Source: Patescibacteria group bacterium
Lineage (GTDB): Bacteria; Patescibacteriota; Microgenomatia; UBA8517
Reading direction: 5' to 3'
DNA: 64,000 bases
Assembly (NCBI GenBank): GCA_036835125.1
Contig: DAITMO010000001.1
Span: 609,399-673,398, forward strand
The translations under genes and the position numbers were made by a program. The notes beneath the pieces are model-generated. The model was not told the DNA's origin, searched no databases, and was given only the letters and a program-made list of their open reading frames with translations. Shown here in pieces: positions 28,222 to 59,500 of this stretch (positions are counted from its first letter, which is position 1; each line of letters starts with the position of its first letter).

Positions 28222-28249
28222 TATCTTACAAATGTAGAATTATATATAT
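28222..28249 (+). promoter_or_regulatory. sigma70-like promoter TTGACT-16-TAGAAT driving the metK leader
   Basis: Hexamers read from sequence; the predicted TSS falls at the start of the riboswitch P1 strand. Confidence 0.45.
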
Positions 28250-28337
28250 ATCAAGAGAGCGGTGAGGGAATTAGCCCGTTGATCCGCCGGCAACCTTATC
28301 ATTATAGGAAGAAGGTGCCAAAGCTATTAACGATATG
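28248..28337 (+). promoter_or_regulatory. SAM-I (S-box) riboswitch in the metK 5' leader, apparently translational
   Basis: AUCAAGAGAGCGGUGAGGGAAUUAGCCCGUUGAUCCGCCGGCAACC...AAGGUGCCAAAGC matches the conserved SAM-I cores (AUCAAGAGAGG.GGAGGGA, GCCCG...CCGGCAACC, GGUGCCAA). The 3' P1 strand GAUAUG includes the metK AUG. No terminator hairpin. The P4 region is very short. Confidence 0.7.
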
Positions 28338-29393
28338 GGAAATATATTTACCAATTACTTCAAGACTTATACCGTTGAATCTGTAACAGAGGGTCATCCT
28401 GACAAAATATGTGACCAGGTTTCGGATGCCATATTAGACGAATGTCTCCTTCAGGATCCCCAAAGCAGGGTGGCTATTGAGTCTTTTGGAAGTCATGGGC
28501 TTTTTGTAATCGGGGGAGAACTAACAACACACGCAAAATTTGACACCAAACAAATTGCTGCTGGGGTTTATAAAAATATTGGTTATAAGGATAAATTAAG
28601 AATAATTACAAATATTATTAAACAATCTCCAGACATTGCTATGGGAGTAGACACTGGAGGTGCGGGTGATCAAGGAATAATGTACGGGTTTGCTACGAAC
28701 GAAACTCCAGAATATTTACCTAAAGGGGTCGCACTTGTTCATAAATTAACCCGCGGTCTTGCGAGTCTTAGACGTAACAAAAGTATTTCTTGGCTTCTAC
28801 CTGATGGAAAGGCACAAGTAACCATGCAAGGCAAAAATATTAAAACAATTTTGGTTTCAACTCAGCACAAAAAAAATATTTCCCAAAATGAAATTACCAG
28901 AGAAATTACCAACAAATTGATAAAAAGGCTAGTTGGGAACATATCTGAAATTGAAATTCTAATTAACCCCACTGGACGTTTTGAAACGGGAGGTTTTTTT
29001 GGAGATACAGGTCTAACAGGTAGAAAAATTATGGTTGATACATATGGAGGTCTTATTCCTCATGGTGGAGGATGTTTTTCGGGTAAAGACCCTACAAAAG
29101 TAGACAGAAGTGGGGCCTATATGTGTCGATTTGCCGCTAAAAACTTGGTAGCAAGGGGGTATGGAAAAAGTATTTTAGTGTCCGTTGCTTATGCAATTGG
29201 CAAAGCCGAACCATTAATGCTCACAGCAATTAATGAAAAGGGTCAAAATTTAAATTCAATTCTCAAAAAAGATTTTGATTTCAGGCCAAAGGCAATCATT
29301 GAAGAGCTCGACCTTTTAAAACCTATTTTCCAAAAATCAGCTTCATACGGTCATTTTGGAAATCCTGCTTTTCCCTGGGAAAAAATAGTTTAA
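28335..29393 (+). CDS. metK: S-adenosylmethionine synthetase
   Basis: ESVTEGHPDKICDQVSDAILD, GGAGDQGIMYGFATNETPEYLP, GGGCFSGKDPTKVDRSGAYMCR. Confidence 0.9.
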   Translation: MGNIFTNYFKTYTVESVTEGHPDKICDQVSDAILDECLLQDPQSRVAIESFGSHGLFVIGGELTTHAKFDTKQIAAGVYKNIGYKDKLRIITNIIKQSPDIAMGVDTGGAGDQGIMYGFATNETPEYLPKGVALVHKLTRGLASLRRNKSISWLLPDGKAQVTMQGKNIKTILVSTQHKKNISQNEITREITNKLIKRLVGNISEIEILINPTGRFETGGFFGDTGLTGRKIMVDTYGGLIPHGGGCFSGKDPTKVDRSGAYMCRFAAKNLVARGYGKSILVSVAYAIGKAEPLMLTAINEKGQNLNSILKKDFDFRPKAIIEELDLLKPIFQKSASYGHFGNPAFPWEKIV

Positions 29394-39791: not shown

Positions 39792-40280
39792 TTGGTTACT
39801 TTTGATATGATTAGTCTCACAATGCTTGAAACTCCTCATGTTTTTGTTGGGGCTGCGATTGCAACAAAAATTCCAAACCCCTGGGTTGCCATTCCTTTAG
39901 CTTTTATGAGCCACTTTGCATTGGAGATGGTTCCCCATTGGAACCCACACTTAAATACTGAAACTGAAAAATATGGACATATAACAAAAAGGAGTACGAT
40001 CGTAACTGCAGCTGATTCAACTTTCGCTCTCCTTTCAGGATCATTCATTGCATACCAATCACTCCCCGATTGGAAGCATGCACTAACTATTTTCTTTGCT
40101 TGTTTTGCCTCAATATTACCTGACCTTATGGAGTGCCCTTATTTCTTTTTAAATATAAAGTGGAAAATTATTGAAAAATGGATTAGTTTTCAAAAATCAA
40201 TCCAAAATGATGTTGCTATAATCCCAGGGGTTTTCACTCAGCTTCTAACTATCATTGGTGCAATTCTCTGGATAAAATAG
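39792..40280 (+). CDS. hypothetical membrane protein (His-rich, possible metal-dependent hydrolase-like)
   Basis: 162 aa with hydrophobic segments and conserved-looking His residues. Weak. Confidence 0.3.
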   Translation: MVTFDMISLTMLETPHVFVGAAIATKIPNPWVAIPLAFMSHFALEMVPHWNPHLNTETEKYGHITKRSTIVTAADSTFALLSGSFIAYQSLPDWKHALTIFFACFASILPDLMECPYFFLNIKWKIIEKWISFQKSIQNDVAIIPGVFTQLLTIIGAILWIK

Positions 40281-40326
40281 TTTAATTATTCAGCATTTAG
40301 CCTTGATTCATGGTAGAATATCGTAT

Positions 40327-40411
40327 GGCCGAGTGGCGGAATGGTAGACGCGCACGACTCAAAATCGTGTTGGGGTAATACTCAGTGAGAGTTCGAGTCT
40401 CTCCTTGGCCA
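40327..40411 (+). tRNA. tRNA-Leu(CAA), type II with long variable arm
   Basis: Acceptor GGCCGAG/CTTGGCC (one G-T pair). Anticodon stem CACGA/TCGTG with loop CTCAAAA (anticodon CAA). Long variable arm. T-arm GAGAG-TTCGAGT-CTCTC. Discriminator A; CCA not encoded. Confidence 0.8.
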
Positions 40412-40413
40412 CT

Positions 40414-41742
40414 TTACTTTTCAGTGTGTTTTGTTTCCCTTGAATAAAACCTAATTCTATCTCCCTTAAAATGAAGTGGAACACTTCTTAATGGACCATT
40501 TCTGTGCTTGCTTATATCAAGCATTATGTTTTCACTGTTTTCATCATCTTCTCTCCATAAAAACATTACAACGTCAGCGTCTTGTTCTATGCTTCCAGAT
40601 TCACGAAGATCTGCAAGTTGTGGTTTTTTGCCTCCTCTTGTTTCTACTGCACGAGATAACTGGGAAAGAACTACAACAGGAATCTTAAGCTCACGTGCTA
40701 AATTCTTCATTCCCTGGGAAATTTCAGAAACCTCTTGGACCCTATTTTCTAGATTCCTTGACCTGGCAAGTTGTAAATAATCAACAACCAAAAGATCAAG
40801 TCCACTTTCAACCTGAAGACGTCTTGCTTTTGTTCTCATTTCAAGAACTGATAGTGCAGGAGTGTCATCAATAAAAAGAGGTGCTTCAGCAAGAACTCCC
40901 ATTGCGTCGCTGAGTTTACTAAAATCATCTTCTGAAAGTTTTCCAGTCTTTAGCCTCCAAGCATCAATATCTGCTTGAGCAACAAGAAGTCTATCAACAA
41001 GCTCTTCCCTGCTCATTTCAAGCGAAAAGAATCCAACGGGGCGTTTTAATTCCACAGCCACATATTGGGCAATGTTCATTGCCAATGTTGTCTTTCCAAC
41101 ACCAGGTCTGGCTGCCAAAATAAGTAAATTGGATTGCTGAAGTCCGGCTAGTGCATCATCTAAATCTTTGAACCCTGTAGGAACACCTCTTACCCCACCT
41201 CCACTTTTATGAAGTTCGTCAAGTCTGTCAAAACTTTCTGCCAAAGTATCTTTTACAGAAGTAAACGCTTTACTTAGCGATTTTTGACTCAATGAAAATA
41301 TTGCACTTTCTGCTTTATCTAAAACATCACTTGCTCCAAGTCCTTCATCAAGAGAGACATCAACAAGTTTAGAAGCCACAGACATTAAGGCCCTTTTTGT
41401 TGCAGTATCTTTTACGATTCTTCCATAATGTTCAACATGGGCCGCAGTTGGAACCTTGTTTGCAAGTTCTACCAAAAAAGATGAGGACCCAATATCTTTA
41501 AATGCTTTATTTTTCTTTAATCTATCTGTAACCGTTAAAACATCAATTGGAATTCTTTCCTCATAAAGATCAATACAAGCTTTATATACTTCACGTAGTC
41601 TTTCGTCATAAAAATCGTCTTCTGACAAAAACTCTGCAACTGCAATAACAGCGTCGCGATCTATAAGCATAGCTCCAAGAACTGATTCCTCAGCTTCCTG
41701 GGAGTGCGGTGGAACTCTTAAATTGGATTGATTTACTGCCAT
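40414..41742 (-). CDS. dnaB: replicative DNA helicase DnaB
   Basis: N-terminal PPHSQEAEESVLGAMLID, Walker A ARPGVGKTTLAMNIAQY; 442 aa. Confidence 0.9.
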   Translation of the reverse strand: MAVNQSNLRVPPHSQEAEESVLGAMLIDRDAVIAVAEFLSEDDFYDERLREVYKACIDLYEERIPIDVLTVTDRLKKNKAFKDIGSSSFLVELANKVPTAAHVEHYGRIVKDTATKRALMSVASKLVDVSLDEGLGASDVLDKAESAIFSLSQKSLSKAFTSVKDTLAESFDRLDELHKSGGGVRGVPTGFKDLDDALAGLQQSNLLILAARPGVGKTTLAMNIAQYVAVELKRPVGFFSLEMSREELVDRLLVAQADIDAWRLKTGKLSEDDFSKLSDAMGVLAEAPLFIDDTPALSVLEMRTKARRLQVESGLDLLVVDYLQLARSRNLENRVQEVSEISQGMKNLARELKIPVVVLSQLSRAVETRGGKKPQLADLRESGSIEQDADVVMFLWREDDENSENIMLDISKHRNGPLRSVPLHFKGDRIRFYSRETKHTEK

Positions 41743-41789
41743 TTAAATTGACTTATACTACTCCTCGGCAGTTTGTAAAGGAGATATAA

Positions 41790-42443
41790 TTATTTTCTTT
41801 CTAGAACAATTACTTTGGCTGTTTGTTCTTCAGAAATATCCTCTCTTTTAATTGTAAATTTAGGTAACACCTCTACGGTTTTTCCTATTTCCTTTAAAAA
41901 CATTTCTTTTGATTCAAGCTCACCAAACTCAGATTCGTTTATCCCTTCATCTTTATAGTGCATTGGAATAATAAAATAGGGATCAATTTTGCCTACAACC
42001 TCAACTGCTTCTTTTGGACTAAGTGTGAATCTACCGCCAACAGGAATCATTAGAATATCAATAGCTCCCATTTCGCTTACAAAATCATCATCTAGAATGT
42101 GTCCCAAATCTCCTAAATGGGCAATTTTAAGACCATCCGCCTCAAAAATATATATTGTATTCTTACCTCTTTCTTCTCCATTTTTGGAATCATGGAATGA
42201 TGAATATCCCATTATTGAGACCCCACCAACCTCATATTCACCTGGTCCTTCAATCACCTTTTTTATGCCGCTTATTTTTTCTATACAATTGTGATCTTTG
42301 TGTTTATGGGAGATTGTGACAATATCAGCATCAGTTGTAGGATATTTAAAACCAACTATTTTGGAATCAAATGGATCGGTTATTACTGTTGCCGTCTTTG
42401 TTTTTATTTTAAATGCTGAATGACCTAAATATGTAATGTCCAT
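41790..42443 (-). CDS. MBL-fold metallo-hydrolase
   Basis: ITYLGHSAFKI...TDPFD and TISHKHKDHN (HxHxDH-type). Confidence 0.7.
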   Translation of the reverse strand: MDITYLGHSAFKIKTKTATVITDPFDSKIVGFKYPTTDADIVTISHKHKDHNCIEKISGIKKVIEGPGEYEVGGVSIMGYSSFHDSKNGEERGKNTIYIFEADGLKIAHLGDLGHILDDDFVSEMGAIDILMIPVGGRFTLSPKEAVEVVGKIDPYFIIPMHYKDEGINESEFGELESKEMFLKEIGKTVEVLPKFTIKREDISEEQTAKVIVLERK

Positions 42444-42556
42444 GGTTTAACTCTATCGCACTCTAACAAATCTAGCAAAATGAATCAATACCCTACTTAT
42501 AAAAAACTTGACTACAGGCTTAACTTACTCTATATTGGGGACTTGCATAAAAGAGA

Positions 42557-43576
42557 ATGAGAAAAGAACTACTTTGGGCAGGAATTATAGGTATTAGTTT
42601 TGGACTTATAATTGGGTTTGGTGTTTGGAGAGTTAAATCAAAAATTTCACAAAAGAATATTTTAGCTCCATCACCCACTCCACAAGCAAATTTAAAAGGA
42701 CAACTTAAAATTGCACTTAATAAACCTGAGGATTATAGTGTTACAACAGAAAGTGTTATTACAGTATCTGGTATCACTAAAAGTTCTTCGTGGGTAGTTG
42801 CCTCCAATGAAACTAACGACTTTATTACTAAAGCAGGAAATGATGGAACTTTCTTACTTGATGTAGACCTAAAATCAGGGGTAAATATCTTAAAGGTTAC
42901 TTCTCTTAATAATCAATCAGAAACTTCTACTGAAAAGGTGCTTGTTGTCTATTCTCCATCTTTTCAAACATCAACCCCTTCCCCAACTTCTGACTCTAAA
43001 TCTTTTGAAGCATCCAGTGAATCAGACATTGATAAAGCTGTTGCACTAAAGGTTGCTCAAGTTGGAAACAACCCAAAAGCATACATTGGAACTGTTACAG
43101 ATATAACCGACACTACAATTCAAATAAAAAGTATGAATAGTCAAATTCAACAAATTGAAACAGGAAATAATGATGTGAACGTTGTTGACTCCAAAGGCAC
43201 TACCACAAAGATTGTAAAACTAACCGATATTGCAATCGGAGATTTTATTGTAGCCATGGGATATGTTGACGGAGATGAAGTATTAGACGTTCAAAGAATT
43301 CTTATTACAAATACATTGACAGAAACACAAATTACTACTTCTATTAAGAAAGTAGTTAAGGAAGGAACAAAATCCATTGAAGTGATAGAAACTGATGGAT
43401 CAACTCAAACAATAACTCCTGGCAAAAATACTGAAATTTATAGCTATTTAGAAGGAAAAACAACATCTATCAAATTGTCTTCCATCACTGAAAATGAGTA
43501 TGTAATTGTAGTTTCCGATACGACAGGTACCCCATCTATAACAAGGTCAATTTTCGATATTGGACAAGTTAACTAA
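42557..43576 (+). CDS. membrane-anchored extracytoplasmic protein, unknown function
   Basis: N-terminal TM anchor (LLWAGIIGISFGLIIGFGVW), then a Ser/Thr/Pro-rich linker and beta-rich domains. Confidence 0.45.
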   Translation: MRKELLWAGIIGISFGLIIGFGVWRVKSKISQKNILAPSPTPQANLKGQLKIALNKPEDYSVTTESVITVSGITKSSSWVVASNETNDFITKAGNDGTFLLDVDLKSGVNILKVTSLNNQSETSTEKVLVVYSPSFQTSTPSPTSDSKSFEASSESDIDKAVALKVAQVGNNPKAYIGTVTDITDTTIQIKSMNSQIQQIETGNNDVNVVDSKGTTTKIVKLTDIAIGDFIVAMGYVDGDEVLDVQRILITNTLTETQITTSIKKVVKEGTKSIEVIETDGSTQTITPGKNTEIYSYLEGKTTSIKLSSITENEYVIVVSDTTGTPSITRSIFDIGQVN

Positions 43577-43585
43577 TAAAAAGCT

Positions 43586-43613
43586 TGACAAAGGAAAATA
43601 ACATACTATAATA
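43586..43613 (+). promoter_or_regulatory. consensus sigma70 promoter TTGACA-16-TATAAT
   Basis: Exact consensus hexamers at 43586-43591 and 43608-43613. Confidence 0.55.
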
Positions 43614-43805
43614 CCCTTTTGTGCCTAAAGTCTTTCGCTCCTTGTCCCGATATGTTTCGGGACAATGAAGGGAAGATTTTTAAAAGTAAATAATATACAA
43701 TAAGGAAGACTAATTTAATAAACCGCCAATACCGTCAGTCACGCGACGGAAGGGCCCGCCAAATACGGGACGCAGATAAGCGTAAAAATCAAAGATCGAT
43801 AATAC

Positions 43806-43829
43806 AGGGAACCGAAAGGTTCCTTTTTT
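43806..43829 (+). terminator. intrinsic terminator-like hairpin GGAACC-GAAA-GGTTCC followed by TTTTTTG, inside the leader of the HisRS-like gene
   Basis: Read from sequence. It lies 55 nt upstream of ATG 43884 and about 190 nt downstream of the consensus promoter, which suggests an attenuator or riboswitch-type leader, or a separate ~200-nt sRNA. Confidence 0.5.
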
Positions 43830-43883
43830 GTTGGTTAAAGACTATTATTAATAGTAAGTATTAGTAGAAATATAAAAAAATAT

Positions 43884-44792
43884 ATGCAAAAAGGTCCAGT
43901 TACACCAAAAGGGTTTGGGGACATACTCCCAACGGAGGCTGCTAAAAGGCGTTTTATGTTTAACGCTATTGCCCCAATTCTTGAAAAAAATGGGTTTGTT
44001 CCATTGGAAACTCCAACTATCGAGTTTGCAGAAACTCTACTTGGAAAATATGGGGAAGATGAAAAACTTATTTATAAATTTGAAGATAAGGGAGGAAGAA
44101 AACTTGCTTTAAGGTACGACCTCACTGTTCCCCTAGCCCGCTTCGTTTCAAATAATCTTGGACTTCTTACCCCAACATTTAGTAGATATCAGATTGGACA
44201 AGTTTTCAGAGGAGACAATCCACAAAAAGGAAGGAAAAGAGAGTTTACACAATTTGATTTTGATACAGTAGGATCAATCGATGCCTCAGAAGATATAAAA
44301 GTTATTGCAGCCGCAATTGAAGCAGCTCGAGCAATTGGACTAAAGGATGCAATCATACAAATAAACGACCGCACAATCTTTGATGAAATTGGTTTTTCAA
44401 AAGAAGCAGTTGTAGCGATTGATAAAATTGACAAAATTGGGAAAGAGGAAGTCCTCAAACTTTTAAAGGAAATTGATCCAAAAGGTGCTGAAGTAAACTT
44501 TAAAAAACTTGAGAATCCAATAATCCCTGAAAGACTTTCTAAAATCTTAGAAGGTTTAAAGTTAAAAGGATTAAAAGATGGAGTCGATTATGTTTTCAAT
44601 CCATACCTTGCTAGAGGTTTAAATTACTATACCTCAACCGTACTAGAGCTAAAATTAGATAAAACTCCAGGAGGTCTTTCCATTGGTGGTGGTGGACGCT
44701 ATGACAACCTAATTGGAATGTTTGCAGGGCGCGATATTCCCGCAATCGGTTTTTCCTTTGGAATAGATCGTATACTAGATTTACTTCCTTAA
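43884..44792 (+). CDS. histidyl-tRNA synthetase-like catalytic core (HisRS/HisZ-like) lacking an anticodon-binding domain
   Basis: Class II motifs: KLALRYDLTVPLARF, FRGDNPQKGRKREFTQFDFD (motif 2), GGGRYDNL...GFSFGIDRIL (motif 3). Only 302 aa. Confidence 0.7.
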   Translation: MQKGPVTPKGFGDILPTEAAKRRFMFNAIAPILEKNGFVPLETPTIEFAETLLGKYGEDEKLIYKFEDKGGRKLALRYDLTVPLARFVSNNLGLLTPTFSRYQIGQVFRGDNPQKGRKREFTQFDFDTVGSIDASEDIKVIAAAIEAARAIGLKDAIIQINDRTIFDEIGFSKEAVVAIDKIDKIGKEEVLKLLKEIDPKGAEVNFKKLENPIIPERLSKILEGLKLKGLKDGVDYVFNPYLARGLNYYTSTVLELKLDKTPGGLSIGGGGRYDNLIGMFAGRDIPAIGFSFGIDRILDLLP

Positions 44793-44838
44793 CACCCACC
44801 CATTCTATTCATGGTCCACTACATGTTACTATTTATGT

Positions 44839-45753
44839 ATGAATCCTGCTCGTAAGCGTGCTTATATTGAGCTTTTAATAGTTGCTGCTATCTGGGGAAT
44901 TGCTGCTCCAATCATTAAACATACCCTTGGAGGTTTCTCTCCTGCGGTGTTTTTAACATACAGACTTTTCCTTTCGGCGGTTGCTGCAATCATAATTTTT
45001 TCAATTACTGGTATAAAATTCCCAAAAAACAGAAAGGTACTTCTGGTAACTATTTTGAATGGTTTCCTTTTAACAACTGTTTCTTTAGGATTACTATTCT
45101 TTGGTTTGAACAAAACAACATCTATTGATTCAAATCTAATTTCAGCAATGGGTCCAATCTTAATTGCAATTGCAGGTGTGTTTTTCTTGAAAGAACGCAT
45201 CACAAAAAGGGAAAGCATTGGGATTTTAATTGCCCTTACCGGAACCTTTGTAACAATTGCTGAACCTGTGTTAAGCGGTCACGTTCATTTTGCGGGACTT
45301 CAAGGAAACCTGTTAATTTTTATCTCATTAATTGTCGGAACAATTACTGCAATATTAGCAAAGGTAGTTCTGAGAAATGATGTTGATGCAAGTTTTGCAT
45401 CAAATTCAGCTTTCATTGTGGGATTTTTAACAATTCTTCCATTTTCCATCTCTGAGATTGTGAATTCTAATTTTGAGGTCATTACTAAGGTTCCATTCTC
45501 TTTTCACTTAGGAGTAATTTATATGGCCCTTCTTTCAGGAACTTTAGCCTATCTTTTGTGGCATAGGGCTGAAAAAACCATAGAGGTTGGCGAAGTAAAC
45601 TTGATTGGATATCTTTACCCTGTATTTGGTACCCCACTTTCAATTTTTTGGTTAAAGGAAAAAATTGGACTTCCCTTCATAATAGGATCCATCCTTATTG
45701 TTGTTGGAGTATTCTTGGCTGAATATAAAAAACGCTTTAAAATAAAAAAGTAG
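44839..45753 (+). CDS. EamA/DMT-family transporter
   Basis: Ten predicted TM helices in two EamA-like halves. Confidence 0.7.
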   Translation: MNPARKRAYIELLIVAAIWGIAAPIIKHTLGGFSPAVFLTYRLFLSAVAAIIIFSITGIKFPKNRKVLLVTILNGFLLTTVSLGLLFFGLNKTTSIDSNLISAMGPILIAIAGVFFLKERITKRESIGILIALTGTFVTIAEPVLSGHVHFAGLQGNLLIFISLIVGTITAILAKVVLRNDVDASFASNSAFIVGFLTILPFSISEIVNSNFEVITKVPFSFHLGVIYMALLSGTLAYLLWHRAEKTIEVGEVNLIGYLYPVFGTPLSIFWLKEKIGLPFIIGSILIVVGVFLAEYKKRFKIKK

Positions 45754-45817
45754 GCCAAACTTCTAACAAACGAGTTGGTATTGCTGATCCTAACCAAAAA
45801 TGCTAAAATTCACTGTT

Positions 45818-46132
45818 ATGAAAGCAGCAATTCATCCAAAATGGTTTGTCGAGGCAACAGTAACCTGTGCTTGTGGCAATGTGTTTACAACAGGCGCAAG
45901 CGTTCCTGAACTCCATGTAGATGTGTGTTCAGCTTGCCACCCATTTTATACAGGACAAATGAAGTTTGTTGATACTGCAGGGCGCGTTGACGCTTTCAAG
46001 GCTAAAATGCAGGGAGCTACAAAACATGTAAGTAAAACTGAAAAAAGAAGACTCAAAGAAGCAAAAAGACAAGAAGAAGAAGCTTCTCGACCAGAAACGC
46101 TTAACGAACTTCGTTCTACAGATACCAAATAG
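45818..46132 (+). CDS. rpmE: 50S ribosomal protein L31
   Basis: [28 protein letters not shown]...[27 protein letters not shown], with a Lys/Glu-rich C-terminal extension. Confidence 0.85.
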
Positions 46133-46164
46133 GAAGCTAAATGTAGCTTGATACTACCTATCAT

Positions 46165-46887
46165 TTGCTACATACTACAATCATGAATCCACAAAATCAG
46201 ACTGTTTATTTAGAAATTAGGGGTGCTACAGGAGGAGATGAAGCAAAGCTATGGGGAGCCGACCTTCTTCGTATGTATATACGCTACGCAGTAAAGAAAA
46301 ACTGGAAAACAGCACTTGTTTCTGAAAATACCCTAAAAATTTCAGGTTTTGGTGTATATGACAACCTAAAAAATGAATCAGGAGTTCATAGAGTTCAAAG
46401 GGTCCCAACTACTGAAAAAAGAGGTAGAATTCATACATCAACTGCAACTGTTGTAGTTCTTCCTGAAGTTAGAGATACCGATATACAAATTAATCCAAAC
46501 GACCTGGATTGGCAATTCACTACTGGAGGTGGTCATGGAGGACAAAATGTAAATAAAGTTGCGACAGCTGTCAGACTCACTCATAGACCCACCGGTATCG
46601 TCGTACAAGCCCGCGAGGAGAGGTTTCAAGAGCAAAATAGACAAATAGCCCTTTCCCTTCTAAGAAGCCGCCTTTGGGAGCATCAAGAGGCTGAAAAAAT
46701 GAGAACAATTGCAGGTTATAGAAGTGTAATTGGGCGAGGAATGAGATCTGAAAAAATTAGAACCTACAATTTTCCTCAAGACAGAGTAACTGATCATAGA
46801 ATTGGGAAAAGCTGGGGAAAACTTGAACTAATTGTTGATGGGGATTTAGAACGAGTCATCGAACTAACCAAAAACATTGAAGCTTAA
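46165..46887 (+). CDS. prfA: class I peptide chain release factor, RF1-like, lacking N-terminal domain 1
   Basis: Begins at the domain-2 motif YLEIRGATGGDEAKLW. GVHRVQRVPTTEKRGRIHTS has a PxT-type tripeptide (PTT). GGQ motif in TTGGGHGGQNVNKVATAVRLTH. 240 aa versus about 360 for canonical RF1. Confidence 0.75.
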   Translation: MLHTTIMNPQNQTVYLEIRGATGGDEAKLWGADLLRMYIRYAVKKNWKTALVSENTLKISGFGVYDNLKNESGVHRVQRVPTTEKRGRIHTSTATVVVLPEVRDTDIQINPNDLDWQFTTGGGHGGQNVNKVATAVRLTHRPTGIVVQAREERFQEQNRQIALSLLRSRLWEHQEAEKMRTIAGYRSVIGRGMRSEKIRTYNFPQDRVTDHRIGKSWGKLELIVDGDLERVIELTKNIEA

Positions 46888-48116
46888 TTAAAAAATTTGA
46901 TTGCCTCAATTAATTGATCATCATTAGATCCATCAGTTGGGTTTGATACTTCAATGTCAGGAATAATTCCTTCTTTATGAACCCACGTTCCTTTAGGTGT
47001 TAACCATTTTGCAGTTGTGACATGAATCCCACTTCCCCCTGTCATATCAATGGGTTCTTGAATAGTTCCTTTGCCAAAGCTTTTATCTCCAACTAGTTTT
47101 ATTCCTAAAGTATCCCTCAATGCCCCTGAAAGAATCTCTGAGGCTGACGCACTTCCTTTATTTATCAAAACAACTGTTTTATATTTAGAAAGTCTTGGTA
47201 AGCTTTCCGATTTATATTCTTCTTTTGACCCATCACCGTTTTCTTGAACAACAACAACTGAACCGTTTGGTACAAAGTCTCCTGCCAGCTCAACCGCCGA
47301 CTGCATGTAGCCTCCTGGATTATTTCGAAGATCAATTATTATTCCTTTTGTATTTTTTGTCATAATCTCAGAAACAGCTTTATTCCATTCACTTTTTGTT
47401 TCTGCTCCAAATTCACTTACCTGGATACGGGCAATGTCTGAACCTTCTCCTACCCATGACAATGTTACTGAGTGAATATTAATTTTCTCGCGTGTAAGCT
47501 CAACAACAATGGGCTCGGAAGCACCATCTCTAAGAAGAGTTAGTGTGACCTTTGTCCCTTCAGCGCCACGAATATAGGTAACAGCCTCATTTGAACTGAT
47601 TGTAGTACTATCAATATCAACATTTTTATTTTTATCTGTAATTTTTACTATATAATCCCCAGGCATTATTCCTGCTTTTGCTGCAGGAGTGTCAGAAAGT
47701 GGAGCAATTACTGCTAGCTGACCATCTCTATAGCCAATCTCAATTCCTACACCACCAAAAGAACCATTTAAATTTTCATTAACTACTTTATTTTGAGAAG
47801 GAGATAGAAATGCGGTGTATGGGTCCCCCACTGATGAAACCATTCCTTGAATTGCCCCATAAATCATTTGAGAAGGAATGAGTTTTGTTTTGTCATAGTA
47901 TTTTTCTGCCAAAAGATCCCATGTTTGCCAAAAAAGAGTCATATCAACGTTTTTATCTATTGGAGTAGCTCGATTAATAGAAATGTTTAAAGCTTTTGAA
48001 ATCTCAACTCTATATCCATTAACTCCCAAAAAATAACCACCGGAAAATACTCCCGCCAAAATAAAAACGGAGATTAATATCTTTCTAACTTTGATGAAAT
48101 CAAGCTTCACACGCAT
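46884..48116 (-). CDS. ctpA: C-terminal processing protease (S41, CtpA/Prc)
   Basis: N-terminal TM, PDZ domain, and S41 catalytic region ...NKGSASASEILSGAL. Confidence 0.85.
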   Translation of the reverse strand: MRVKLDFIKVRKILISVFILAGVFSGGYFLGVNGYRVEISKALNISINRATPIDKNVDMTLFWQTWDLLAEKYYDKTKLIPSQMIYGAIQGMVSSVGDPYTAFLSPSQNKVVNENLNGSFGGVGIEIGYRDGQLAVIAPLSDTPAAKAGIMPGDYIVKITDKNKNVDIDSTTISSNEAVTYIRGAEGTKVTLTLLRDGASEPIVVELTREKINIHSVTLSWVGEGSDIARIQVSEFGAETKSEWNKAVSEIMTKNTKGIIIDLRNNPGGYMQSAVELAGDFVPNGSVVVVQENGDGSKEEYKSESLPRLSKYKTVVLINKGSASASEILSGALRDTLGIKLVGDKSFGKGTIQEPIDMTGGSGIHVTTAKWLTPKGTWVHKEGIIPDIEVSNPTDGSNDDQLIEAIKFFN

Positions 48117-58270: not shown

Positions 58271-59500
58271 TCAAGGTAAAAGCCTTTTGTTTATTTCTTC
58301 TAAACTCAAAAGTTCGTTCTTCTTGGAATCTCTCTCTTTCCACTCAATTCTATCTCCATTACGCTCCGAAATTACTAATCTAAGTGGAATTCCAATGAGG
58401 TCTGCATCTGCAAATTTTTCTCCTGCTGGAACATTTCTGTCATCCCACAGGGTGTCAACCCCAATGTCTTTTAATTTATTATAAATTTCTTCTCCCTTTC
58501 TCCCTGGAAGTTCAACTAGGTGAACATCAAATGGAGCAATTGCTTTGTTCCAAATAATTCCATGATCATCATGTGACACTTCCACCCATGTTCCCATAAC
58601 TCTGGTAGGGCCTATTCCATAACTTGCAAACCATACTGGTTTTTTAAGTCCCTTTTCATCTGTAAAGTAGACTCTCATGCGCTCTGCATACCAAGTACCA
58701 AGTGGAAAAATATTTCCAACCTCCACTGTTTTATCTAATTTTTCTATTTTTCCCTTCTTGCAAACTGGACATAAATCTTCCTCTTTTCCATCATATATTT
58801 CCTTATTTACAGCAAAATTACACTTATCACATGCATAAACAATATCCTCTCCATTTGCGTTTAATACTTGAAATTCGTGCGTATGCTTTTCGGTAAATAC
58901 TCCTCCACTAGCCTCAACCACCTTAAAATCAAACCCAATTCTCTTAAAGATCTTTATATAAGCTTCTTTTATTTTCTCGTAGTACCCCATCATGTCTTCT
59001 TCATTTACATGAGCTGAGTAAAGATCCTTCATCAAAAACTCCCTGCCTCTTAAGATTCCAGAACGTGCTCTTGGTTCATTTCTAAACTTTGTAGAAAACT
59101 GGTAAATTGAAACAGGTAAATCTTGGTAGCTTTTAATGTTTTTACGAAGAAGGTCCATCACAATTTCTTCATGAGTAAAAGAAAGTACATAATCTTTTTT
59201 CCTTGTATCAGTTAGCTTGTACATTATCTCGTCCGCTTTATCCCAACGCCCAGTTTCTGCCCAAATTTCTTTTGGGTGAAGAAGTGGCATTGCAAGCTCT
59301 AATCCTCCAACAGCGTTTATCTCTTCCCTTATAATATTATTTATTTTTGTAACAACTTTTAAACCCAAAGGAAGTAAAGTAAAACTACCACTCATAAGCT
59401 GATCTATAAATCCTCCACGAACCAAAAGTTTATGATTAATGCTCTCAGCATCTTTTGGCGCTTCTCTTCTAGTTTTTGGAAATAGTTCTGATTGCCTCAT
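58271..59500 (-). CDS. proS: prolyl-tRNA synthetase, minimal form
   Basis: SFTLLPLGLKV (motif 1), FRNEPRARSGILRGREFLMKDLYS (motif 2), an inserted CDKC...CPVCKKG zinc ribbon, and a C-terminal anticodon-binding-like GIPLRLVISERNGD. 409 aa with no editing domain. Confidence 0.75.
   Translation of the reverse strand: MRQSELFPKTRREAPKDAESINHKLLVRGGFIDQLMSGSFTLLPLGLKVVTKINNIIREEINAVGGLELAMPLLHPKEIWAETGRWDKADEIMYKLTDTRKKDYVLSFTHEEIVMDLLRKNIKSYQDLPVSIYQFSTKFRNEPRARSGILRGREFLMKDLYSAHVNEEDMMGYYEKIKEAYIKIFKRIGFDFKVVEASGGVFTEKHTHEFQVLNANGEDIVYACDKCNFAVNKEIYDGKEEDLCPVCKKGKIEKLDKTVEVGNIFPLGTWYAERMRVYFTDEKGLKKPVWFASYGIGPTRVMGTWVEVSHDDHGIIWNKAIAPFDVHLVELPGRKGEEIYNKLKDIGVDTLWDDRNVPAGEKFADADLIGIPLRLVISERNGDRIEWKERDSKKNELLSLEEINKRLLP

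Follow-up and report, generated by a model that had tools for sequence, protein, structure and literature searches.

A leader RNA probably derived from a tRNA-His T-box precedes the gene for a histidyl-tRNA synthetase without anticodon-binding domain in a member of the Patescibacteria

What kind of RNA stands in front of the gene for a shortened histidyl-tRNA synthetase (HisRS) in a member of the Patescibacteria, and does it still act on this gene? The locus lies in a stretch of 64,000 nucleotides (nt) of contig DAITMO010000001.1 (assembly GCA_036835125.1, positions 609,399 to 673,398), here called the window, to which all coordinates without a locus name refer; related loci are designated by L and a number. 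In the window, a gap (43577-43883) separates the gene for a 339-amino acid (aa) protein, whose N-terminus appears to be membrane-anchored, from a 302-aa open reading frame (ORF), hisS. A first-pass annotation of this gap had described a promoter, a structured leader and an intrinsic terminator, and had read the layout as an attenuator or riboswitch, or else as an independent small RNA. We propose that the leader RNA is, very probably, a T-box-derived element that reads tRNA-His. In alignments it consists of two modules, hairpin A and module B (~43714-43830), which are found separately in other loci. Some species have the layout promoter-A-hisS, others promoter-B-hisS or both modules, and L011 and L025 show the succession B, A and a tRNA-His(GUG) gene.

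The assignment is carried by the decoding module, which was located with the covariance model R1. The seed of this model consisted of 19 relatives and excluded the window; R1 matches 27 distinct loci and detects the module in the window with 49.1 bits (E = 1.7e-8). The module is composed as follows.

43714-43799, plus strand: T-box decoding module (covariance model R1)
43723-24 / 43752-53, plus strand: Stem I lower helix (R1 nested pairs)
43732-36 / 43745-49, plus strand: Stem I upper helix (R1 nested pairs), which is the hairpin CCGTC/GACGG (pairing)
43737-44, plus strand: Stem I loop AGUCACGC (R1)
43740-43742, plus strand: specifier CAC (His codon; complement of the tRNA-His anticodon GUG), within the loop of Stem I and followed by a purine (G, 43743)
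43755-58 / 43766-69, plus strand: Stem II with the loop CCAAAUA (R1 nested pairs)
43771-73 / 43780-82, plus strand: Stem IIA (R1 nested pairs)
43783-87, plus strand: A-rich sequence UAAAA
43775-77 (GAU) / 43788-90 (AUC), plus strand: pseudoknot strand IIB, read off the sequence

Throughout the family, Stem I has a lower helix of 3 base pairs (bp), an upper helix of 4-5 bp and a loop of 8-9 nt that contains CAC followed by G (consensus AGUCACG). The specifier CAC is invariant in 27/27 members and AGUCACG in the 19-sequence seed, with AGCCACG in L093 and AUUCACG in L133 as variants of the specifier loop. Stem II, with 5 bp and the loop CCAAAUA or CAAAAU, is followed by Stem IIA, UAAAA and a IIB strand that pairs back into the IIA loop, and GCGUAA or CCGUAA stands where the Rfam T-box model places CCGUUA (the F-box). 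The distal Stem I platform (double T-loop) is absent, the upper helix being short in the window and in all relatives, and no S-turn was recognised in Stem II. Among 20 distinct sequences, 94.8% of the cells are paired and 13/15 pairs changed on both sides, counts that lean towards structure because the alignments were fitted to R1. The covariation score of 0.80 compares with at most 0.17 when the partners are slid, and 0/500 shuffles were as good. The two pseudoknot strands are complementary in every member in spite of diverse sequences (GUUG/CAAC, GUUUC/GAAAC, AUCU/AGAU, GCCAA/UUGGC and GAU/AUC), and own loop and tail form at least 4 bp in 69% of the pairs versus 17% of swapped pairs. In summary, a Stem I specifier that fits the amino acid of hisS, the downstream gene, is combined with a Stem II domain and a IIA/B pseudoknot with F-box-like sequence, and the pairs of Stem I, Stem II and IIA covary. 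Judged by these features of its sequence, the module in the window is an unambiguous member of the T-box family.

Motif searches identified module B as the 5' portion of a conserved ~200-300-nt RNA that ends in AAGGAUGGGACCGCGGGAGG and is followed, in most loci, by a short hairpin with a U-run and then by hairpin A with its own U-run. In 15 loci, the 5' arm of hairpin A, CCUCUCGU-UCCU, is a possible pairing partner of AGGA-UGGGACC-GCGGGAGG. Helix A1 (AGGA/UCCU) forms 4/4 pairs, the 7-nt bulge UGGGACC is invariant, and helix A2 forms 6-8 of 8 pairs with a G.U pair at its bulge-side end. A purine string AAGAG-Stem III-AA, or a close variant, is readable upstream in most of these sequences, and in the four loci that were folded the competing terminator, hairpin A, is 5-18 kcal/mol more stable. 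The hallmarks of the T-box discriminator are a 7-nt bulge with UGGN at the A1 edge followed by ACC, the string RRRxG-Stem III-AA and a terminal G.U pair of A2 (PMC7583486). Since these hallmarks are present, the full-length relatives are T-boxes, with a canonical discriminator in 15/15. In 14/15 an extra hairpin, GGGACC-GCGGGA-GGUCC with U6, buries the T-box bulge. An Rfam search of the leader, which the first-pass annotation had recommended, returned no family at 43500-43950, even with E <= 10; RF00230, the Rfam T-box model, does align to the relative L093 (2714-2937; 34.2 bits, E = 3.1e-6, gathering score 93) and sets Stem III, the T-box sequence and the F-box at places that had been assigned independently. 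The same model gave no match on L061, none in 12 loci at the gathering threshold and none on the window (E <= 10).

The genes behind the full-length elements are hisS (L093, L122), tRNA-His(GUG) genes (L011, L025, L098), long-form hisG with hisE and hisI (L041, L034, L154), an M20 peptidase together with a GNAT-like protein (L011, L126) and an AstE/AspA-like deacylase (L123). These genes, the CAC specifier and the UGGG bulge together point to tRNA-His as the ligand. UGGG fits the discriminator base C73 of the adjacent tRNA-His genes, and the same tRNA genes encode G-1. Long-form hisG, hisE and hisI (L154 573-2278; L034 5052-5929; L041 4488-5405) cover the first three steps of histidine synthesis, and later his genes were not seen in the flanks of these three loci. 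The M20 peptidase and GNAT-like or AstE/AspA-like deacylase loci are L011 4238-5967, L126 1000-2765, L123 1234-1911 and L013 250-930; the M20 peptidase and the deacylase may free histidine from peptides or acylated forms.

How does the copy in the window differ from these relatives? Besides the decoding module, the locus contains the following features.

43585-43612, plus strand: promoter P1, TTGACA-16-TATAAT (TTGACA 43585-43590; TATAAT 43607-43612), with 12/12 match to the consensus
43627-43681, plus strand: hairpin A followed by U5, fold -27.3 kcal/mol
43644-49 / 43658-63, plus strand: hairpin GTCCCG/CGGGAC (pairing)
43682-43713, plus strand: AT-rich linker whose length and sequence vary among species in the alignments
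43796-43829, plus strand: invariant block UCGAUAAUAC and terminator T1, AGGGAACC-GAAA-GGUUCCUU with U6 (terminator scan)
43830-43883, plus strand: spacer ahead of hisS, without Shine-Dalgarno sequence and without -10 box at -12
43884-44792, plus strand: hisS, HisRS catalytic core of 302 aa, ending just past motif 3

The perfect promoter, both hairpins (GTCCCG/CGGGAC and CCGTC/GACGG), the terminator and the EamA gene directly downstream of hisS had all been named by the first-pass annotation, and each is present within 1-4 nt of its first placement. P1 is the sole 12/12 match in a promoter scan of 40000-48000. Promoter-like sites are not enriched in this region (19 observed versus 23.5 expected), so that the scan by itself proves little; in the alignment, the hexamers of TTGACA-N16/17-TATAAT are invariant at the matching position of related loci. 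From the promoter spacing alone, transcription is predicted to start near 43619-43620, and the leader RNA between P1 and T1 would measure ~210 nt, close to the ~200 nt first described. It is strongly structured: 43614-43835 folds with -67.8 kcal/mol versus -47.5 +/- 4.3 for shuffles (z = -4.69), and 0/200 shuffles equalled it. The T1 stem (43806-43825) has 8 pairs and a GAAA loop (fold -11.6 kcal/mol), its T6 runs to 43829 and the hisS ATG follows at a distance of 54 nt. The EamA gene starts at 44839, after a 46-nt gap.

As alignment and motif searches show, hairpin A is the homologue of the main terminator in full-length T-boxes. Its 5' arm CCUCUCGUUCCUU is, in the relatives, the partner of the T-box sequence. 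In the window this former main terminator has an eroded U-run and stands 5' of the decoding module. Behind the pseudoknot comes the near-invariant block UCGAUAAUAC-AGGGAACCGAAAGGUUCC-U6, in which T1 is homologous to the bulge-burying hairpin of the full-length relatives; L133 represents an intermediate form (CGAUAAUACAGGAUGGACCGC...GCGGUCC-U6). This layout is common to L167, L168, L169, L007, L013 and the alignable parts of L015 and L095, and L020 and L133 are without hairpin A. The spacer ahead of hisS contains an insertion of ~20 nt relative to L168, L169 and L007.

Several observations weigh against the view that the window RNA still works as a T-box in front of hisS, in addition to the leaning of the covariation counts mentioned above. 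The UGGN-ACC bulge, Stem III, helices A1 and A2 and the antiterminator pairing are absent from 43578-43883, and relaxed UGGNACC scans of the window and all loci gave matches in coding sequence only. Therefore, the part of a T-box that is called essential for sensing and switching (PMC7583486) is missing: the window has neither the discriminator nor the mutually exclusive antiterminator and terminator that form the switch in the relatives, and it stays below the gathering score of RF00230. A conserved alternative pairing to T1 was not found in sister species. A permuted antiterminator between the 5' arm of hairpin A and T1 (CUUUCG/CGAAAG, duplex -11.8 kcal/mol) was considered and rejected; this pairing is taken as chance because none of L013, L015 and L007 retains the complementarity. 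Some sister species have lost the module and retain hairpin A only. Furthermore, a TAnnnT -10 box stands exactly at -12 from the ATG in 16/66 genes of the window (background ~2-3 per position; 7 with TGn extension), for example ahead of the EamA start at 44839 and the minus-strand starts 28187, 33509 and 50392, and Shine-Dalgarno-like motifs precede 4/66. The frequent box and the rare motif imply leaderless mRNAs, which fits poorly with a classical switch; from these signals, leaderless mRNAs seem to be a major expression mode of the source organism. Most cut-down relatives possess such a leaderless promoter (TGnTAnnnT-N6-ATG) between T1 and the hisS ATG, and their hisS would be independent of read-through through T1. 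The -10 box is placed exactly 6 nt before the ATG in L168, L020, L015, L095 and L133 and 7 nt before it in L169 and L007, with TGn extension in four. Finally, L169 has a second promoter-like sequence, TTGACA-N17-AATAAT (~1290-1330), inserted between hairpin A and the module, which suggests that these can be separate transcription units.

These promoters lead to a different explanation, namely that the P1-T1 unit is a stand-alone small RNA of ~210 nt that binds tRNA-His in trans, where it might be a sponge, chaperone or sensor, while hisS is transcribed separately. An independent small RNA had also been named in the first-pass annotation. The unit has its own consensus promoter and a strong terminator, and in the seven relatives named above the -10 box 6-7 nt ahead of the hisS ATG is the usual leaderless layout of the genome. 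The separate promoter ahead of the module in L169, the maintenance of the structure after loss of the discriminator and the near invariance of T1 with its preceding 10 nt, which goes beyond the need of a plain terminator, are also in line with this explanation. However, the unit is always found directly upstream of hisS or of a hisS-containing operon, although the loci had been selected by hisS, and no trans target is known. In addition, neither the window hisS nor the operon in L013 has a promoter of its own. Taken together, we consider a stand-alone RNA possible but not likely.

A second explanation is decay. After a shift to leaderless mRNAs the T-box might have become useless, and the leftover would be a constitutive, leaky terminator without sensing. 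The patchwork of partial forms (full length, module with T1, hairpin A only, A with module), the deletion of the discriminator, the eroded U-run of hairpin A in the forms that combine it with the module, the Shine-Dalgarno count of 4/66 and the common leaderless promoters are all compatible with such a relic. It is opposed by the conservation of the cut-down group. In the seven loci without discriminator 92.6% of the cells are still paired and 7/15 pairs show double changes, and the pseudoknot covaries inside this group; compensatory changes thus preserve both stems, I and II, as well as the pseudoknot, and hairpin A also shows them (L169, L007). The UCGAUAAUAC-T1 block is nearly identical in the nine species with this T1, whereas hisS DNA is 64-74% identical (five compared). 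RNA identity amounts to 68-83% and exceeds that of the adjoining hisS DNA in 4/5 species, and no species has lost the perfect consensus promoter. We therefore regard mere decay as unlikely.

The alternative that we favour is a remaining role in cis. We give roughly an even chance, or slightly less, to the possibility that the window RNA still serves as a cis attenuator of hisS via partial read-through of T1. In this model, P1 would drive the ~210-nt RNA, a descendant of a transcriptional tRNA-His T-box lineage, T1 would stop most transcripts, and the fraction that reads through would supply the hisS mRNA. Read-through is invoked because a good promoter for hisS alone is missing in the window: between T1 and the ATG only a weak TATTAT (43843) and TATAAA (43871) were found. 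L167 shares with the window both the 20-nt insertion at this place and the lack of a good promoter. In L013, an element of this type stands at the head of an ORF-hisS operon without promoter of its own. The missing -12 box of the window hisS and this operon support the cis role. The module would keep binding the anticodon arm of tRNA-His, and any effect of the tRNA on termination would have to work without the usual antiterminator. Possibly, the GGG at the base of T1 is contested by the 3' end of the tRNA (C73-C74-C75). The ability to sense tRNA charging has probably been weakened or lost. As for the attenuator or riboswitch layout proposed at first, it was right in kind, as the element derives from a tRNA-His T-box, but the element is neither a histidine-binding riboswitch nor, as no His-rich small ORF is present, a leader-peptide attenuator, and the layout does not establish a working switch because the window copy is rearranged and has no discriminator.

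Other identities of the leader were considered and discarded. The sole small ORF on the plus strand (43619-43693, 24 aa) contains no His codon, which speaks against a leader-peptide attenuator. A tRNA-His mimic for autoregulation by HisRS was rejected since the loops of hairpin A are variable and without GUG. SRP RNA, 6S RNA, RNase P RNA, tmRNA, a tRNA-like fold, preQ1 and SAM-II did not fit by eye, a comparison that became moot once the relatives showed T-box features.

Further reduced forms were observed among the related loci. A tiny unit of promoter, ~20 nt and hairpin A with U6 is present in L008 (3133-3183), L009 (5920-5970), L010 (3135-3185), L012 (5921-5971) and L014 (5914-5966), where the U6 is followed by an extended -10 box and then by the hisS ATG. 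The same promoter-terminator unit is found in L090-L092, L096 and L097, and it is conserved in ~10 species. In L047 (5816-5990), L054 (5807-5990) and L166 (146-320), the decoding module is followed by a hairpin with UGGU(A) loop and by a different terminator, GACCCGUAAGGGUC with U7; a canonical T-box bulge is not present in this form.

Which protein does the downstream gene encode? The first-pass annotation had seen a HisRS catalytic core without anticodon-binding domain and had left the choice between HisZ and a minimal HisRS. The core was recovered: the ORF (43884-44792) matches the Pfam family tRNA-synt_His (PF13393) with 4.4e-40, and no HGTP_anticodon domain was found by Pfam in the 302-aa product. 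With the NCBIfam model hisS (TIGR00442) it scores 281.3 bits, just below the cut-off of 286.75 because the C-terminus is absent, and with hisZ (TIGR00443) 144 bits at a cut-off of 271.65. Among solved structures, true HisRS enzymes come closest; the motifs LRYDLTVP, GRKREFTQFD, ARGLNYYT and GGGGRYD align with them, and the catalytic and histidine-binding motifs are conserved. Exact copies of the protein occur on metagenome contigs, the longest 285 kb, with gene content typical for Candidate Phyla Radiation (CPR) bacteria, and its relatives belong to Woesebacteria and other Microgenomates. Among 156 complete related loci, 129 encode a short form (289-310 aa) and 27 a full form (395-420 aa), with no intermediates. 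Full-form relatives are at most 53% identical, and the full-length L061 (396 aa) can be aligned to the window protein over its own residues 6-292 only. Within a large Microgenomates clade, the short HisRS is the usual form. A split HisRS was rejected, as no separate gene for the anticodon-binding domain was found in the flanks of any short hisS; a weak match at 58295-58489 belongs to prolyl-tRNA synthetase (ProRS), the only other window protein that carries an anticodon-binding domain of the HGTP type. As far as sequence comparison can tell, the gene encodes a true HisRS without anticodon-binding domain, in agreement with the minimal HisRS proposed earlier.

HisZ, a HisRS paralogue that regulates short-form HisG as a subunit of ATP phosphoribosyltransferase, shares the HisRS-like catalytic fold without anticodon-binding domain. 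If the product were HisZ, the leader would be a histidine-responsive riboswitch or would attenuate histidine biosynthesis by means of a leader peptide, and hisG, hisE and hisI are indeed close by in some relatives. In contrast to HisZ, the window protein keeps the HisRS catalytic motifs and scores with hisS, remaining far under the hisZ cut-off, and lacks a short HisG as partner in the window: the search for hisG and for a second hisS, as had been advised, was run on the window and found neither. In the relatives, hisG is the long form with HisG_C domain. Long-form HisG needs no HisZ. A leader ORF with His codons is absent, the RNA bears a tRNA-His specifier and the relatives bear the UGGG T-box bulge. 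On account of the scores, the conserved motifs, the long-form hisG of the relatives and the missing hisG in the window, HisZ was rejected; we regard it as extremely improbable.

How do these elements relate to known systems? The closest parallel are the translational ileS T-boxes of Actinobacteria, described for Nocardia farcinica and Mycobacterium tuberculosis (PDB 6UFM, 6UFG; PMC7583486). Both groups have an ultrashort Stem I without platform for the tRNA elbow, decode by Stem I together with the Stem II domain and form a compact IIA/B pseudoknot with an F-box-like sequence (CCGUCA in ileS, CCGUAA/GCGUAA here). The ileS elements differ in that they keep the discriminator, which the window copy has not, and act on translation, where they mask the Shine-Dalgarno sequence. 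Intrinsic terminators stand at the end of the Microgenomates elements, which would therefore act on transcription. Their Stem II is a 5-bp hairpin with A-rich loop in which no S-turn was recognised, whereas that of ileS is long and has an S-turn. With the canonical transcriptional T-boxes (RF00230, including the hisS leaders of Firmicutes) they share the position before an aminoacyl-tRNA synthetase gene and a specifier matched to the amino acid, and the full-length relatives also share the purine string at Stem III, A1, the UGGN-ACC bulge, the terminal G.U pair of A2 and the competing terminator. Unlike canonical T-boxes, they are without long Stem I, and the extra hairpin corresponding to T1 buries the bulge in 14/15; in the window, moreover, the discriminator is deleted and the terminator hairpin stands upstream of the decoding module. 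In this family, a transcriptional T-box has an ultrashort Stem I and two terminators, and conserved derivatives without discriminator also belong to it. A long Stem I has been described as essential for transcriptional T-boxes (PMC7583486), and the combination of an ultrashort Stem I with terminators is for that reason unexpected.

A different parallel is offered by SreA and SreB of Listeria, terminated transcripts of S-adenosylmethionine (SAM) riboswitches that are reportedly riboswitch-derived small RNAs. As in SreA and SreB, a sensor domain that is ended by a terminator and produced in quantity from its own promoter could act in trans. In contrast, the parent element here senses a tRNA and not a metabolite, and trans activity is only putative. 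It is tempting to speculate that the discriminator-less module is a novel tRNA-binding RNA and not a broken switch, either as a minimal attenuator that senses tRNA-His and is free of antiterminator or as a stand-alone RNA that partners HisRS. In the latter version, the GUG-reading module would work beside the domain-less HisRS, for example by recruiting or proofreading tRNA-His. We consider this reading, in both versions, quite improbable.

Three other features of the window concern translation and riboswitches. A peptide chain release factor (46165-46887, plus strand, 240 aa) matches the PCRF profile from position 99 on and carries an RF-1 domain; its N-terminal domain appears to be missing, and the same short form exists in Woesebacteria relatives. 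ProRS (58271-59500, minus strand, 409 aa) matches the bacterial-type model in two separate stretches, consistent with loss of the editing insertion and thus with a second trimmed synthetase in the window. The S-adenosylmethionine synthetase gene metK (28335-29393) has a SAM-I riboswitch (28245-28339, plus strand; 57.4 bits, which exceeds the gathering score) directly upstream. This pairing is ordinary, yet shows this small genome to have riboswitch control.

T-boxes are regarded mainly as a system of Firmicutes and Actinobacteria. The T-box database likewise derives mainly from these two groups (10.1101/2020.06.17.157016). A text search of the literature found no paper that links T-boxes to CPR, Patescibacteria or Microgenomates, an absence that is not proof of novelty, and a T-box lineage of Microgenomates does not seem to have been described. 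The Rfam T-box model misses the family at its gathering score. The relatives constitute a natural series of full T-box, decoding module with one terminator and terminator hairpin alone. As the cut-down group is under purifying selection, it can be used to test what a lone decoding module does, and the series can show how a riboswitch decays or is reused while a lineage shifts to leaderless mRNAs. The whole clade, finally, appears to use a HisRS without anticodon-binding domain.

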